A stretch of DNA of 64,000 bases, taken from contig CAVYZN010000022.1 in the NCBI GenBank assembly GCA_963773065.1, positions 13,113-77,112 on the forward strand, given 5' to 3'. Both the position numbers and the translations under genes were made by a program. Below are positions 52,931 to 64,000 of this stretch, piece after piece. Positions within the stretch are counted from its first letter, which is position 1; every line of letters starts with the position of its first letter. The stretch comes from an uncultured Gammaproteobacteria bacterium (lineage in GTDB: Bacteria > Pseudomonadota > Gammaproteobacteria > UBA9214). A model generated the notes under the pieces. It did not search any database, was not told the DNA's origin, and worked only from the letters and a program-made list of their open reading frames with translations.

Positions 52931-52946
52931 TGGCATGCATGATGCT
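52931..52946 (+). promoter_or_regulatory. Putative sigma54 (-24/-12) promoter
   Basis: TGGCATGCATGATGCT, GG-N10-GC, about 45 nt upstream of the 52992 ATG. Confidence 0.65.
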
Positions 52947-52991
52947 TACTTACCAGTCAGAAGATGCCACATGCTGACGGAGTCAAAGACC

Positions 52992-53315
52992 ATGAACCGA
53001 TTGCTGACCAGTGAATGTCTCAGGAAAGAAAATCTCACCTATGACGGCACCGGGGGAGTGAGCGGGGGAATCGCACGAGCGGTTTCATACCCGCCTTCCG
53101 CGACAGCGCCACCGGGCGGGTGGAACCCAGCCGGATGTCCGATGGCGCGCTGGCTCCCATGCATCTGCTGGCCGGTCTGCCCCGCGAATGGGTGGTGACA
53201 CGGGGAGACTCGAATGAGGTGCTGGCCGTCAAGGCGACAGTGATCGCCGGTTTCCTGCACGCCGGTACTGTTCTATACCCGCGATCAGGCGGCACGGGCG
53301 GTGGCGCTGCACTGA
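52992..53315 (+). CDS. Conserved hypothetical protein (~107 aa; indels)
   Basis: MNRLLTSECLRKEN...GTGGVS / GFIPAFRDSATG...APMHLLAGLP...VIAGF / RDQAARAVALH* across frames; RBS ggag. Confidence 0.65.
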
Positions 53316-53736
53316 AAAGCCGATCCCCGGCCCCATTATTCCGTAGCCAGTCCCACAATCCGCACAATTGACCCCGTGCCAGCCCGCCTCAAGCGGGCGA
53401 TTCCACTATATCAGAACCCATCATTGAGGGATCGGTGCGGCTCACCCCCGATAGACATCCCAAATGCCGCATCTATAATGGTGGAAACCAAGCGACGACT
53501 GATAGGGATTGGTCATCCAGACCGCTGCAATACCTCCTCTCACCTGCAATATACCCTCGCGTTGCGGAAAACCCGTTCGCGTCCTGCAGGTCCGGCAGGA
53601 GCCAACCGGCCGTGCAGCCGAGAGCGTTGAACCCGGTGATTAGCAGTTGTTGAGAGGGTAGGCGTGCCCCCGGGGCGGGGTGGTTTACCGATAAAATAAC
53701 GTTGAAACATCTGGGGAATCAGGAAGGAATAACCTT

Positions 53737-55647
53737 ATGAGCACAGCACACAGTGCACCATTGAACAACCCGCCTGCGCCCCCCGCCACGGAAGATATCC
53801 TGCAACTGATCTATCAGGGCACCGCCACCGCCACCGGCGAGGATTTCTTCCGCGCCCTGGTGCGCGCCACTGCCATGGCCATGCAGGTGCACTTCTGCTT
53901 TGTGGCGGAGTTCGCCGGTTCCCGGGAACGGGTGCGCACGCTCGCCTACTGGAAGGGCCGGGATTTTGTCGACAACATCGAGTTCGCCCTTCACGGCACC
54001 GTCTGCGAGGACGTACTCAAGGGGGAGGTGCGCTACTATCCGGAAGGGGTGCAAGCGCTGTTTCCCCAGGAACCGGCGCTGGTCGATCTCGGCATCGAGA
54101 GCTACCTCGCCACGCCCATGACCGACCGCCAGGGCGAGGTCCTGGGACATCTGGCGATCTGTGACGTCAAACCCATGGACTTCCGGGAGAGCGAGCTGGC
54201 CGTGTTCAAGATCTTCGGCGCCCGGGCGGCGGCCGAACTCGAGCGCATGTACGCCACCGAGTCGCTGCGACAAAGCGAGGAGCGTCTGGCCACCATCCTG
54301 TCATCCGCCACCGACGCCATCATCACCATCGACGGCGATCATCACATCACCCTGTTCAATCAGGCGGCCGAGCAGGTATTCCGTTGCAGCGCCGCGTGGG
54401 CGGTGGGGCAGCCGTTCGACCGTTTTCTGTCGGCCTCATTCCGCCAGTTGATCGCGCCTTTCCTGGACAAGGGCACTGCCGAGGCTCATCAGGTCTGGGC
54501 GCCGGAGGGCATAACGGCCGTGCGCGCCGACGGCGAGGAATTCCCCATCGAGGCTACCATCTCGCCCCTGCAGGTCTTCGGTACGCGTCTCTACACCATC
54601 ATCCTGCGCGATATCAACGAACGGGAACTCGCCCGGCTGGAAATCCACAACCTGCAGGCCGAGAACCTCAACCTGCAGGAAGAGATCCGGCGCCGGCAGC
54701 GCTTCGCCGAGATGATCGGGGACTCGCCCGCCATGAGCGAGATGTTCGAACAGATCGCGATGGTCGCCGGCACCGATGCCAGCGTTCTGCTGATCGGTGA
54801 GACCGGCACCGGCAAGGAGCTGATTGCCCGCGCCCTGCACGAACGCAGTCCGCGCAAGGACCGGCTGATGGTCAGCGTCAACTGCGCGGCCCTGCCGAGC
54901 GAGCTGATCGAGAGCGAGCTGTTCGGTCACGAGAAAGGCGCCTTCACCGGCGCCACCGCACAGCGCAAGGGCCGCTTCGAGCTGGCCGACAACGGCACCA
55001 TCTTCCTCGACGAGGTCGGCGAGCTTACCGCCCAGGCTCAGGCCAAGCTGCTGCGCATCCTACAACAGCAATCCTTCGAACGGGTAGGCGGCAGCACGAC
55101 CTTGCACGTCAACGCGCGGGTCATCGCGGCGACCAACCGCGATCTCGCCGCGATGGTGAAGGACGGCCGGTTCCGGGACGACCTCTTCTACCGGCTCAAT
55201 GTCTTCCCGATCCGCGTACCGCCCCTGCGCGAACGGCGCTCCGACATCCCGCTGCTGGCGCGGCATTTTCTGCACCAGATGGCGCGCAAGCTCAACAAGC
55301 CGGTGCAGGGCATCGACAAGGAGTCGCTGGAGCGCCTGATGGGCTATTCCTGGCCCGGCAACGTGCGCGAGCTGCAGAACGCCATCGAGCGCGCCACCAT
55401 CCTGTCCCAGGGACCGACGCTGAGCATCACCGATCCGACGTTCACGAACCCCCCGCAAATGCCCGCGACCGAACCGTCGGCCGGCAGCCTGGACGCGGTG
55501 CAGAAATCCTACATCCTCGAGGTGCTGACGAAATGCCAGGGGAAGATCGAAGGCCGCAACGGCGCGGCGGCCATGCTCAACGTCAAGCCGAGCACGCTGC
55601 GCTACCGCATGCGCAAACTCGGCATCGAAAAGGCGGATACGCGGTGA
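53737..55647 (+). CDS. Sigma54-dependent activator, GAF-PAS-AAA+-HTH (FhlA-like)
   Basis: GETGTGKE, ESELFGHEKGAFTGA, FLDEVGE, FRDDLFYRLNV, WPGNVRELQN, C-terminal HTH. Confidence 0.93.
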   Translation: MSTAHSAPLNNPPAPPATEDILQLIYQGTATATGEDFFRALVRATAMAMQVHFCFVAEFAGSRERVRTLAYWKGRDFVDNIEFALHGTVCEDVLKGEVRYYPEGVQALFPQEPALVDLGIESYLATPMTDRQGEVLGHLAICDVKPMDFRESELAVFKIFGARAAAELERMYATESLRQSEERLATILSSATDAIITIDGDHHITLFNQAAEQVFRCSAAWAVGQPFDRFLSASFRQLIAPFLDKGTAEAHQVWAPEGITAVRADGEEFPIEATISPLQVFGTRLYTIILRDINERELARLEIHNLQAENLNLQEEIRRRQRFAEMIGDSPAMSEMFEQIAMVAGTDASVLLIGETGTGKELIARALHERSPRKDRLMVSVNCAALPSELIESELFGHEKGAFTGATAQRKGRFELADNGTIFLDEVGELTAQAQAKLLRILQQQSFERVGGSTTLHVNARVIAATNRDLAAMVKDGRFRDDLFYRLNVFPIRVPPLRERRSDIPLLARHFLHQMARKLNKPVQGIDKESLERLMGYSWPGNVRELQNAIERATILSQGPTLSITDPTFTNPPQMPATEPSAGSLDAVQKSYILEVLTKCQGKIEGRNGAAAMLNVKPSTLRYRMRKLGIEKADTR

Positions 55648-55717
55648 CCACCTGGGGTCTCGCCTCTCAAATTCATTATGGAAGCCATGACGTGAATTCG
55701 TCATTGCGAGGAACAAA

Positions 55718-55885
55718 GTGAATACCCCACCGGCTAAAGCCGGTGGCTTCGGATTACGGCTGAAAGCCGGATTGATCGGCCATTCGACCGATCACCGTCA
55801 TACAACGGTAAAATCATCGTCTGGCTCTGGCGGCTGCTGATTCTTGATGTATTCCTTTCAGATATCATCTGTCACATCCCCACTC
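55718..55885 (-). mobile_element. IS200/IS605 tnpA 3' remnant with end hairpins
   Basis: GDVTDDI*KEYIKNQQPPEPDDDF carries the Y1 YxxxQ motif and an in-frame stop; hairpin ccaccggctaaagccggtgg. Confidence 0.7.
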
Positions 55886-55921
55886 AAACGCCGTACTGCA
55901 ACCCTTCATAGCAGGTTCCGA

Positions 55922-62612: not shown

Positions 62613-62958
62613 CGTTTGTTTCCTCCAGCGGCTTTACGCGAGTTGTCCGCCTGGCAGGCATCTTTGGCGCGATGGCGTGCTGGTGGCGGTTACCAGTAGG
62701 TGTTCGGCGATTCCAACTTGTTATCCAGAGCGCGTCTTCGCCCCCTGCGCTTCGACCAGACTTTAAATCTCATCCGGCTGTCCCAGGCATTAGTATATAA
62801 CCAACAAGCATGCGGATTCCTGTTTGTATTTAAGGCAGCAAGCACATGAAATGCTGGATCAACCCGCTGTGCGAAACATACTAGCGGGACGTTTTACTAT
62901 CAAATGGCGATATTATAATAATTTTATCAATCCATACCCCACCCATACCGCAGTGCAA

Positions 62959-62974
62959 TGGCAATCATACTGCT
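62959..62974 (+). promoter_or_regulatory. Putative sigma54 (-24/-12) promoter
   Basis: TGGCAATCATACTGCT, GG-N10-GC, preceded by an AT-rich tract. Confidence 0.55.
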
Positions 62975-63150
62975 AAAATGTTGAGTGTGACCTCAAGGCG
63001 GTGGAGGATTATGCCGTGCGGAAACGATGGGTTCCAACCCGCTGCCATGAGGTGTGACTGGTGACAAGGCTCAGCATTCTGCTCTTAAGCGGCGCGGGGG
63101 CAGTGAATTCGTTCAATAAAATGCGTGTATGTGATGACAGGAGAGTGAAG

Positions 63151-63342
63151 ATGGCAACCATAGTGATCAAAGACCTGGCCGCAAGTAAAGAGCTCGACCG
63201 AAAAGCCATGCGCGCAATAATCGGCGGGGGTGCAGGGCGGCGCCTGGGAATGCCTGCCTATCAGTCCGAGTTTTTCCAGCCGCCGGTATTTCAGGCAGGT
63301 TTCAAATTCGCGCCCTTCGAACTCGATACGACTAGCCGCTAA
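63151..63342 (+). CDS. Small precursor peptide with double-glycine leader (63 aa)
   Basis: RBS ggag; MATIVIKDLAASKELDRKAMRAIIGG then Phe/Pro/Gln-rich core. Confidence 0.8.
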   Translation: MATIVIKDLAASKELDRKAMRAIIGGGAGRRLGMPAYQSEFFQPPVFQAGFKFAPFELDTTSR

Positions 63343-63674
63343 CACTCTCAACGCAACTTTTAGACGGCGGGGCATCGAAGAACTACGCCGCACCTCGGGG
63401 CACGCGCTCTTCGTTGCGATCAGCCATGGGTTGCCAGTAGGGGTCCTATCGGTGCATTCCGTGTTGCCAGGGATTCATAACAGCGTTTCTTCCCGCGTGG
63501 CTGCCGCGGACTTTCCACCGTTGCTCTTCACCAAACAGTGTTACTTGTTTGTGTTCGCAGTTCGCGAACATCCGATTACCGAATCCTAATCGCGGCCTTT
63601 GCCCCGGTTGCAAGAGAAGTTTTAAATTTATTCGATTTCAATTGGTTATAATTTTTTGGCGGAACCAACCGGGT

Positions 63675-63690
63675 TGGCACGGTTCCTGCT
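63675..63690 (+). promoter_or_regulatory. Sigma54 (-24/-12) promoter
   Basis: TGGCACGGTTCCTGCT close to consensus TGGCACG-N4-TTGCW; IHF-like tttcaattggtta just upstream. Confidence 0.75.
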
Positions 63691-63771
63691 CTATACCAGA
63701 CATGAGTGCAAACCGCTCATGACCCAAACCCCTAAACCCGTAATCACGACTGAATCTAAAGGAGAACTGCA

Positions 63772-64000
63772 ATGCTGACCATCAAAGATCTTTCCGCAAG
63801 CCTGGAACTCGACCGTAAGGCCATGACCGAAGTGCGTGGCGGTGGCGACTGTTTCTCGACCAATGCCCAAGGCTCATCCCAGAGCGCGGTCGGCGGCCTG
63901 GTGGCCGTCAACGAGAGCACCCAGAACCTGTTTTCTGCCAACAGCGCCGTCGACTATACGGATATCCAGAAGACGCTGGTCGCGATTGGCCAGAACAACG
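63772..64000 (+). CDS. Second double-glycine-leader precursor, 3' truncated by window edge (absent from ORF track)
   Basis: RBS aaggag; MLTIKDLSASLELDRKAMTEVRGG then S/N/Q/A/G-rich core GDCFSTNAQGSSQSAVGGLVAVNESTQNLFSANSAV... Confidence 0.82.
   Translation, partial: MLTIKDLSASLELDRKAMTEVRGGGDCFSTNAQGSSQSAVGGLVAVNESTQNLFSANSAVDYTDIQKTLVAIGQNN

Follow-up and report, generated by a model that had tools for sequence, protein, structure and literature searches.

Peptides with a double-glycine (GG) leader and the peptidase-containing ATP-binding cassette transporters (PCATs) are well known, for example from class II microcin and colicin V systems of the CvaAB-TolC type, and the production of class II bacteriocins in Gram-positive bacteria is controlled by an induction peptide, a histidine kinase and a response regulator. 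The kinase, phosphatase and FHA protein which form a switch of type VI secretion systems (T6SS) are known as well. According to one study, the T6SS protein TagR has a formylglycine-generating enzyme (FGE)-sulfatase domain, through which it is modelled to bind the periplasmic domain of the kinase PpkA (PMC13713981). For HetC of Nostoc PCC 7120, a PCAT, another study describes an N-terminal domain of the cyclic nucleotide monophosphate (cNMP) type which is needed in vivo and binds ppGpp in vitro, and gives no known substrate gene nearby (PMC10986499). A conserved locus in which the peptides and the switch are joined is apparently undescribed; a literature search, with supplements outside its scope, returned no description of this gene combination. 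Here, we analyse such a locus at the end of a 64,000-nucleotide stretch of DNA (the window) from an uncultured gammaproteobacterium. The window corresponds to positions 13113–77112 of contig C22 in an assembly of 3.84 Mb, 33 contigs and 90.9% completeness (labelled G000); C22 is 77112 bases long, and the last base of the window is the last base of the contig.

The block at 52.9–64 kb of the window probably represents the sensing and signalling half of a conserved system of proteobacteria which makes and exports double-glycine peptides, together with the first two of its precursor genes. Its gene content and order recur in other species, the leader of the peptides and their promoter are conserved, and in relatives the peptide genes are linked to an operon encoding a PCAT, a HlyD protein and an FHA protein. 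The gene set, confirmed from the listing of open reading frames (ORFs) and by Pfam, is as follows (positions in the window):

52992–53315, + strand: small conserved protein, about 105 aa in relatives, in three frame segments here
53737–55647, + strand: GAF-PAS-AAA+ sigma-54 activator (Pfam: GAF, PAS, Sigma54_activat 4.6e-72, HTH_8; GAFTGA in the translation)
55922–56437, − strand: exported DUF4399 protein (Pfam 5.7e-39; signal-like N-terminus by eye)
56456–56890, − strand: exported DUF4399 protein (Pfam 3.3e-36; signal-like N-terminus by eye)
57246–59396, + strand: exported caspase (C14)-SH3-FGE-like protein, 716 aa (Peptidase_C14 7.5e-38, SH3_3 5.3e-09, FGE-sulfatase 1.2e-51; signal-like N-terminus)
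59463–61748, − strand: membrane Hanks-type Ser/Thr kinase, 761 aa (Pkinase 2.6e-44; one hydrophobic helix)
61755–62612, − strand: PP2C Ser/Thr phosphatase (Pfam; NCBIfam Stp1-type model 219.6 bits, cut-off 230)
63151–63342, + strand: peptide 1, short-class precursor with a GG leader, 63 aa; its gene comes first after PP2C, always so in relatives
63772–64000, + strand: peptide 2, precursor with a GG leader, long 'A' class, truncated at the contig end (paralogues 81 aa)

As the window ends with the contig, peptide 2 is truncated five codons short of its 81-aa paralogue. An earlier note, made from the letters of the window, had described the GAF-PAS activator with an intact GAFTGA motif, the two exported DUF4399 proteins, the exported caspase-SH3-FGE fusion, the membrane Ser/Thr kinase, the PP2C gene and the two GG-leader peptide genes; all of them were found again where they had been placed, and re-examination likewise revealed no C39 peptidase or T6SS gene inside the window.

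A scan for the leader, with one genome per species, yielded 29 loci in 22 assemblies. They belong mostly to uncultured Gammaproteobacteria; the others are from Desulfonema magnum and from two betaproteobacteria, of which one is Caenimonas soli S4 (locus L018); in an even sample of the class, the leader is carried by five of 400 scored genomes, G000 included. Neighbour families were defined by all-against-all ORF clustering followed by Pfam searches, and the counts given below have to be read knowing that many of the 29 loci are cut by contig ends, lie on short contigs or are second arrays whose main locus is elsewhere in the genome. The order DUF4399 (two genes), SH3-FGE, kinase, PP2C and peptide array is repeated in L005, L007, L011, L013 and L022 (tblastn), which represent different species with protein identities of 50–82%; the span fetched for L022 begins at the FGE gene, and DUF4399 is therefore not within it. 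A kinase and/or PP2C gene is carried by 10 of the 29 loci. In L017, L018, L020, L023 and L024 (betaproteobacterial, Methylococcales, Chromatiales) the kinase and PP2C genes adjoining the arrays are non-orthologous to those of the window, and L024 encodes a PP2C-kinase fusion. The co-occurrence across genomes, a lack of which would have refuted the proposal of the earlier note, is borne out by orthologous order in five loci.

In relatives, the array and the small gene are followed on the other strand by a family activator and the export genes. These genes and a frequent neighbour were found as follows:

PCAT of 1015 aa (two cNMP-binding domains, C39 peptidase, ABC membrane and ATPase domains): 12 of 29 loci
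SurA-like peptidyl-prolyl isomerase (PPIase) of 250 aa: 9 of 29 loci
HlyD protein of 458 aa: 9 of 29 loci
protein of 800–880 aa with two FHA domains, bitopic through a single membrane helix, its outer part long and helical: 6 of 29 loci
cyclase-FHA protein of 295 aa, often nearby: 5 of 29 loci

The Cys and His motifs of the C39 domain are kept in all eight PCATs inspected. Both the C39 exporter linked to the peptides and the FHA protein nearby, as predicted in the earlier note, exist in relatives and are absent from this assembly. A homologue of the cyclase-FHA protein (48% identical) is encoded in G000 at C11:364049–364996, 1.3 kb from a contig end, and may belong to an unassembled part of the locus.

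Leaders of PCAT substrates end in GG (or GA or GS) and have hydrophobic residues at about −4, −7 and −12; the leader of peptide 2 (...KAMTEVRGG) has V at −4, M at −7 and L at −12. It fits the published Gram-negative GG-leader motif at positions −12, −7, −4, −2 and −1, as quoted in PMC4462113. An alignment of 26 peptides showed a near-invariant leader, with D6, E12, L13, D14, A17, M18, G23 and G24 invariant, followed by cores which fall into differing types. The arrays of relatives begin with the short type, continue with A and B types and close with a 100-aa last type ahead of the small gene; the short, peptide-1 type has a core of about 37–40 residues. The peptides matched no Pfam or NCBIfam model, and the 46 relatives of the 81-aa paralogue among 5.8 billion protein clusters bear no function names, being called 'hypothetical protein' where they are named at all. 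An AlphaFold2 (AF2) model of the long peptide is all-helical and weak (pLDDT 66.5, pTM 0.26), and a microcin-like nature is not separated from a fibre by it. Among the conserved neighbours, no known family modifying ribosomally synthesised peptides was found, and the other conserved small ORFs of the 29-locus clustering are alternative frames. Most likely, the peptides are antagonistic and microcin-like, and the short first peptide is possibly a signal.

The regulatory elements of the block centre on the sigma-54 type motif TGGCA-N7-TGC:

52931–52945, + strand: −24/−12 element of sigma-54 type, TGGCATGCATGATGC, with a distance of 61 nt to the small gene downstream (pattern match)
62959–62973, + strand: doubtful −24/−12 match, 192 nt before peptide 1 and outside the −69 to −116 register
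63553–63569, no strand: palindrome GTTCGCAGTTCGCGAAC, a candidate site for binding of an activator, 122 nt upstream of the −24 element
63675–63689, + strand: −24/−12 element of peptide 2, TGGCACGGTTCCTGC (pattern match)
63701–63721, + strand: stem-loop with which the leader RNA of peptide 2 would begin (CATGAGTG...CGCTCATG; −9.8 kcal/mol, z −4.5)

The motif occurs eight times in the window against 3.7 expected, a number of at least eight being reached in 4 of 100 shuffles; the three matches inside the block (52931, 62959 and 63675) all lie upstream of + strand genes. A pattern search of the window, the paralogues and the 29 loci yielded 66 genes with the leader. The motif lies within 250 nt of 49 of these, and in 48 cases its distance to the ATG corresponds to the register −69 to −116, compared to a background of 0.025 per 250 nt. 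The earlier note had placed a −24/−12 promoter before each of the two peptide genes. For peptide 2 this holds, whereas a sigma-54 promoter of peptide 1 is doubtful: the match at −192 is out of register, the strict motif was found in none of six peptide-1-type genes scanned in relatives, and aligned intergenic regions between PP2C and peptide 1 revealed no clear shared promoter.

Upstream of the −24 element, a palindrome GTTYGC-N5-GCRAAC is present in 25 of the 48 promoters at a distance of 114–144 nt (122–127 nt in 22 of the 25; background 0.028 per 220 nt), and several other promoters carry a degenerate form of it. The stretch between the palindrome and the −24/−12 element is AT-rich and holds a candidate IHF-like motif. 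Directly after the −12 element, a 5′ hairpin with z < −1.5 was predicted in 31 of the 48 promoters by single-sequence folding. Its stems differ by lineage (CATGAGCG, GTGTGAGC, AAGCGA), yet the pairing is kept, with loops of 4–9 nt; the hairpin was not recovered as a consensus fold when RNAalifold was run on 31 promoter/leader regions aligned with plain MAFFT. It could serve as an RNA stabiliser or as a regulatory target. Peptide 2 has all four parts, i.e. palindrome, AT-rich stretch, −24/−12 element and hairpin. The features of a sigma-54 regulon are all present: a GG-N10-GC promoter, an upstream site, an activator with GAFTGA and an rpoN gene in G000 (231.6 bits). In relatives, the family activator (420 aa) was found in 12 of the 29 loci, and 11 of these activators, from Gamma- and Betaproteobacteria, have a DNA-binding helix with the common motif NRSH.Q.LLKKH.

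The proteins of the signalling half are conserved to different degrees. The orthologues in L005, L007, L011 and L013 are 70% identical to the DUF4399 protein at 55922, and orthologues of that at 56456 are 75–82% identical (61–82% overall); the start of the former protein is likely an internal Met ahead of the signal-like segment. A conserved exported protein of 192 aa without Pfam match precedes the DUF4399 genes in L007 (1315–1893), L013 (1588–2166) and L005 (3–452), and was not found in G000. Kinase orthologues in five loci are 50–58% identical, PP2C orthologues 60–70% and the FGE parts 53–58% (tblastn). The C-terminal periplasmic domain of the kinase is conserved and gave a weak DUF4384 match (9.7e-05) below the cut-off.

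As revealed by alignment, the 716-aa protein consists of the SH3-FGE protein known from relatives and an added caspase part, which is missing from five orthologues. Inside the Pfam C14 match lie the segments YYAGHG and LDTCQ, which we take to be the caspase His and Cys motifs and which provide a His-Cys dyad. Near arrays, caspase domains are also found in L017 (an OmpA-caspase protein) and in L018 (a caspase of 279 aa). Alignment to human FGE chains showed that the positions of the catalytic cysteines, Cys336 and Cys341 in human numbering, are occupied by N and A, so that the cysteine pair of a true FGE is lacking. The closest solved relative of the FGE-like domain is PvdO (PDB code 5hha, 4.4e-41; NCBIfam PvdO 168 bits). 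This domain may serve for binding, or else it may be a periplasmic enzyme similar to PvdO. A complex prediction for the FGE-like domain (residues 478–716) with the outer domain of the kinase (residues 518–760) scored 0.06 against a mark of 0.32, which is evidence neither way.

With PvdO as the closest relative, it is conceivable, though unlikely, that the exported proteins (caspase-SH3-FGE-like, DUF4399 and the PPIase of relatives) are periplasmic factors for maturation or handling of the peptides rather than sensors, with kinase and PP2C regulating something else or only transcription. PvdO is itself a periplasmic maturation protein of pyoverdine, caspases are proteases which recur near arrays (the fusion of the window, L017 and L018), a SurA-like PPIase is part of the exporter operon, and Arg, a residue favoured by C14 peptidases, is abundant in the short first peptides. 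Nevertheless, in every case the SH3-FGE gene is a direct neighbour of the kinase/PP2C pair, as is TagR of PpkA and PppA; moreover, the missing caspase domain in five orthologues and the loss of the catalytic cysteines of FGE speak against this reading, and PCAT-HlyD export is usually a single step across both membranes.

Several observations weigh against the proposed system. The export half has to be assumed for G000: no C39 domain scored above the cut-off in this assembly (best 20.2 bits, cut-off 22), nor was an orthologue of the PCAT with cNMP domains, of HlyD, of the PPIase or of the protein with two FHA domains found there. In the genus, three of five genomes (G000, G001 and G003) carry the peptides, and only G003 the PCAT with cNMP domains. 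The contig of G001 likewise breaks within the array; as the contigs of both genomes end in the array, repeated peptide genes seem to break assemblies, and since the contig of G000 ends there, its export half is presumably unassembled. The DNA-binding helix of the activator in the window differs from that of the family activator, resembling that of L024, and G000 was found to encode no activator with the NRSH.Q.LLKKH helix; a role of the neighbouring GAF-PAS activator as driver of the peptide promoters is thus not supported. No immunity gene was recognised: when ORFs of at least 45 aa from the 29 loci were clustered, a small membrane protein conserved among them did not emerge. The small gene of the window is broken twice by frameshift. 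DUF4399 (4 of 29 loci) and FGE (7 of 29 loci with an FGE or caspase protein) are tied to the system in one gammaproteobacterial group only. Finally, the peptide genes travel without the module: within the fetched DNA they stand alone in 10 of 29 loci, and G000 holds two orphan pairs among mobile genes.

These orphan pairs, each of A/B type, are located at C21:53241–54214 (L001 8242–9221) and at the end of C8 (C8:292389–293531), and they have some 300 bp of upstream sequence in common. In C21, the pair is flanked by fragments of IS3-type transposases and by ParA-like and serine-recombinase genes, while the C8 pair has an altered −24 element and an insertion in the leader. Orphan pairs in such surroundings, the loci with peptides only and a transposase-like ORF 2 kb upstream of the block would all be expected if the kinase module and the peptide genes were mere neighbours in a variable island, having no functional link. 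We consider this very unlikely, as the gene order recurs in five loci of different species, non-orthologous kinase and PP2C genes lie beside the arrays of L017, L018, L020, L023 and L024, and the exporter operon includes FHA proteins, the readers of kinase marks.

The caspase-FGE architecture calls for comparison with anti-invader 'conflict' systems. In the work of Kaur et al. 2020, FGS domains, which have the FGE fold, are described with other domains always N-terminal to them and in conflict systems centred on NTPases (vWA-MoxR, STAND); effector-FGS fusions are described there, with caspases among the effectors (PMC7159879). That the protein of the window is of this kind, with an effector N-terminal to an FGS sensor, and that the locus is a defence island appears highly improbable: vWA-MoxR and STAND NTPases are absent here, the caspase-FGE protein is exported via its N-terminus and its SH3-FGE part is orthologous to the caspase-less protein of the peptide system. 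A T6SS beyond the contig end, for which FGE, kinase and PP2C would be the Thr-phosphorylation switch in the layout of TagR-PpkA-PppA, has a negligible chance and was rejected, since the sheath protein VipB (PF05943) gave no match in G000 or in any of five carrier genomes with the same module, where the flanks hold peptides and PCAT; the earlier note had named such a T6SS as another possible explanation of kinase and phosphatase.

The small gene at the left edge of the block was originally noticed as a hypothetical gene behind a −24/−12 promoter at 52931. It belongs to a conserved family of about 105 aa found in 8 of 29 loci, where it is placed after the peptide array, and in L007, L010 and L013 it is a single ORF with a counterpart of the promoter at −63; in the window, in contrast, its reading frame is broken, with frame changes near 53064–53068 (a G run) and near 53270 (split of the tblastn match). 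None of the sequencing runs holds the strain of the window (best share of words 0.23). Contigs of relatives, mostly 90–95% alike (some pieces 93–98%), span most of the block and leave the second frameshift site uncovered; a short-read contig of one relative has one additional base at 53065. Tblastn matches to single genes are split across frames at several further sites of G000, including C8:67150–68566 and other ABC genes, which points to indel errors in this assembly. Given the additional base and these frame-split genes, an assembly error is the likely, although unproven, cause of the frameshifts. Two RNA libraries gave contigs which lie over both peptide genes, PP2C, the gene of the FGE-like protein and the DUF4399 genes, and one of these contigs begins upstream of the promoter; DNA carry-over is possible, and they were not counted as expression.

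The small protein found no match in Pfam, NCBIfam or a PDB profile search (0 hits), and in a protein atlas it falls into unnamed clusters only. It has no hydrophobic segment. Its AF2 model reached a mean pLDDT of 73.6; Foldseek against the PDB returned nothing at E ≤ 0.001, and the best Z in a wide VIA search was 2.9. An intact paralogue of 107 aa, 47% identical to the protein of L007, is encoded at C5:155027–155350 of G000, alone, with no peptides or activator nearby. An imperfect palindrome TGTCCCACGATCTTTCGTGACA recognised by eye at 52750–52772, about 180 nt before the 52931 promoter, may be a site of the GAF-PAS activator. Further upstream in the window lie a cold-shock protein gene (51766–51969), the start of which is overlapped by a cspA thermoregulator RNA (Rfam RF01766, 85.5 bits, 51653–52028) just upstream of the block, and the 429-aa ORF at 49535–50824, IS-transposase-like by eye. 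The transposase-like ORF, the displaced small gene and the different activator suggest that the left edge of the locus has been rearranged.

The earlier note had proposed a sensing and phosphorylation module controlling processed peptides. Co-occurrence, linkage to C39 and the lack of a T6SS stand behind this proposal, whereas control by phosphorylation and the identity of the peptides are matters of interpretation. We infer a kinase switch which gates either transcription or export of the peptides, and the same conditional reading applies to the direction in which signals run, to what DUF4399, the caspase domain and the small protein do and to the function of the peptides. An envelope cue might be read by the FGE-like and DUF4399 proteins together with the periplasmic domain of the kinase, as by TagR for PpkA. 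The kinase would then phosphorylate threonines, and PP2C would reset them. FHA proteins may read these marks and gate the exporter, either directly or via a cNMP formed by the cyclase-FHA protein and bound by the PCAT. An activator would turn on sigma-54 transcription of the precursors, and the PCAT would cut after GG and export the peptides together with HlyD.

In a bolder version of this scheme, which we regard as rather unlikely, the system would be the Gram-negative equivalent of bacteriocin production under pheromone control, assembled from parts of eukaryote type. Here, the short peptide, whose gene comes first after PP2C and has no canonical sigma-54 promoter, would be exported, possibly trimmed by the periplasmic caspase, and sensed by the pair of FGE-like protein and kinase; threonine phosphorylation, read by FHA and a cNMP relay, would open the PCAT and fire sigma-54 transcription of the long peptides. 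The TagR-PpkA-PppA-Fha switch would then be a portable module for envelope danger or kin sensing, combined by bacteria with various secretion machines, instead of a T6SS accessory.

In any case, the joining of GG peptides with kinase, phosphatase and FHA genes in one locus, together with sigma-54 promoters and a pump with an input of cyclic-nucleotide type, suggests a gating of peptide secretion by threonine phosphorylation in many proteobacteria of the environment. Context is gained for several uncharacterised families, namely DUF4399, DUF4384, the 105-aa protein and the activator's N-terminal region. In addition, the locus offers a promoter whose architecture is defined, secreted peptides which form a large and unexplored family, and a cultivable carrier, Caenimonas soli S4.

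Compared to class II microcins, the system shares small GG-leader precursors and, in relatives, a C39-ABC exporter with intact Cys and His motifs plus HlyD. It differs in that the leader of 24–26 residues is far more conserved than the cores, arrays comprise up to 6–8 precursor genes whose classes follow an order, an immunity gene was not recognised in the 29 loci, and two cNMP domains of the PCAT, sigma-54 promoters and kinase, PP2C and FHA genes are found. With HetC, the PCAT of relatives has in common a ligand-binding domain of cNMP type ahead of C39-ABC; unlike HetC, it has its substrate genes adjacent, two cNMP domains and often a cyclase-FHA gene nearby. The three-component control of Gram-positive bacteriocins is resembled insofar as a short GG peptide heads a cluster of longer ones beside a membrane sensor kinase and a PCAT, whereas a Hanks-type kinase with PP2C, FHA proteins and a sigma-54 activator are used here and sensing of the short peptide is only hypothetical.

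The closest counterpart of the signalling half is the Thr pathway of the H1-T6SS of Pseudomonas aeruginosa (TagR/TagQ, PpkA, PppA, Fha1), in which the earlier note had already seen the same layout. As TagR carries an FGE-sulfatase domain that binds PpkA in the model of PMC13713981, the set of FGE-like protein, kinase, PP2C and FHA protein mirrors this switch: an exported protein with FGE fold adjoins a membrane Hanks-type kinase and PP2C, and FHA is present in relatives only. Unlike in the H1-T6SS, no sheath gene (PF05943) was found here or in five of five carriers, the outer domain of the kinase is a weak DUF4384 match and not that of PpkA, and the FHA protein of relatives is a bitopic membrane protein with two FHA domains. 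Above all, the machine beside the switch in relatives is a PCAT/HlyD peptide exporter, combined with sigma-54-driven transcription.

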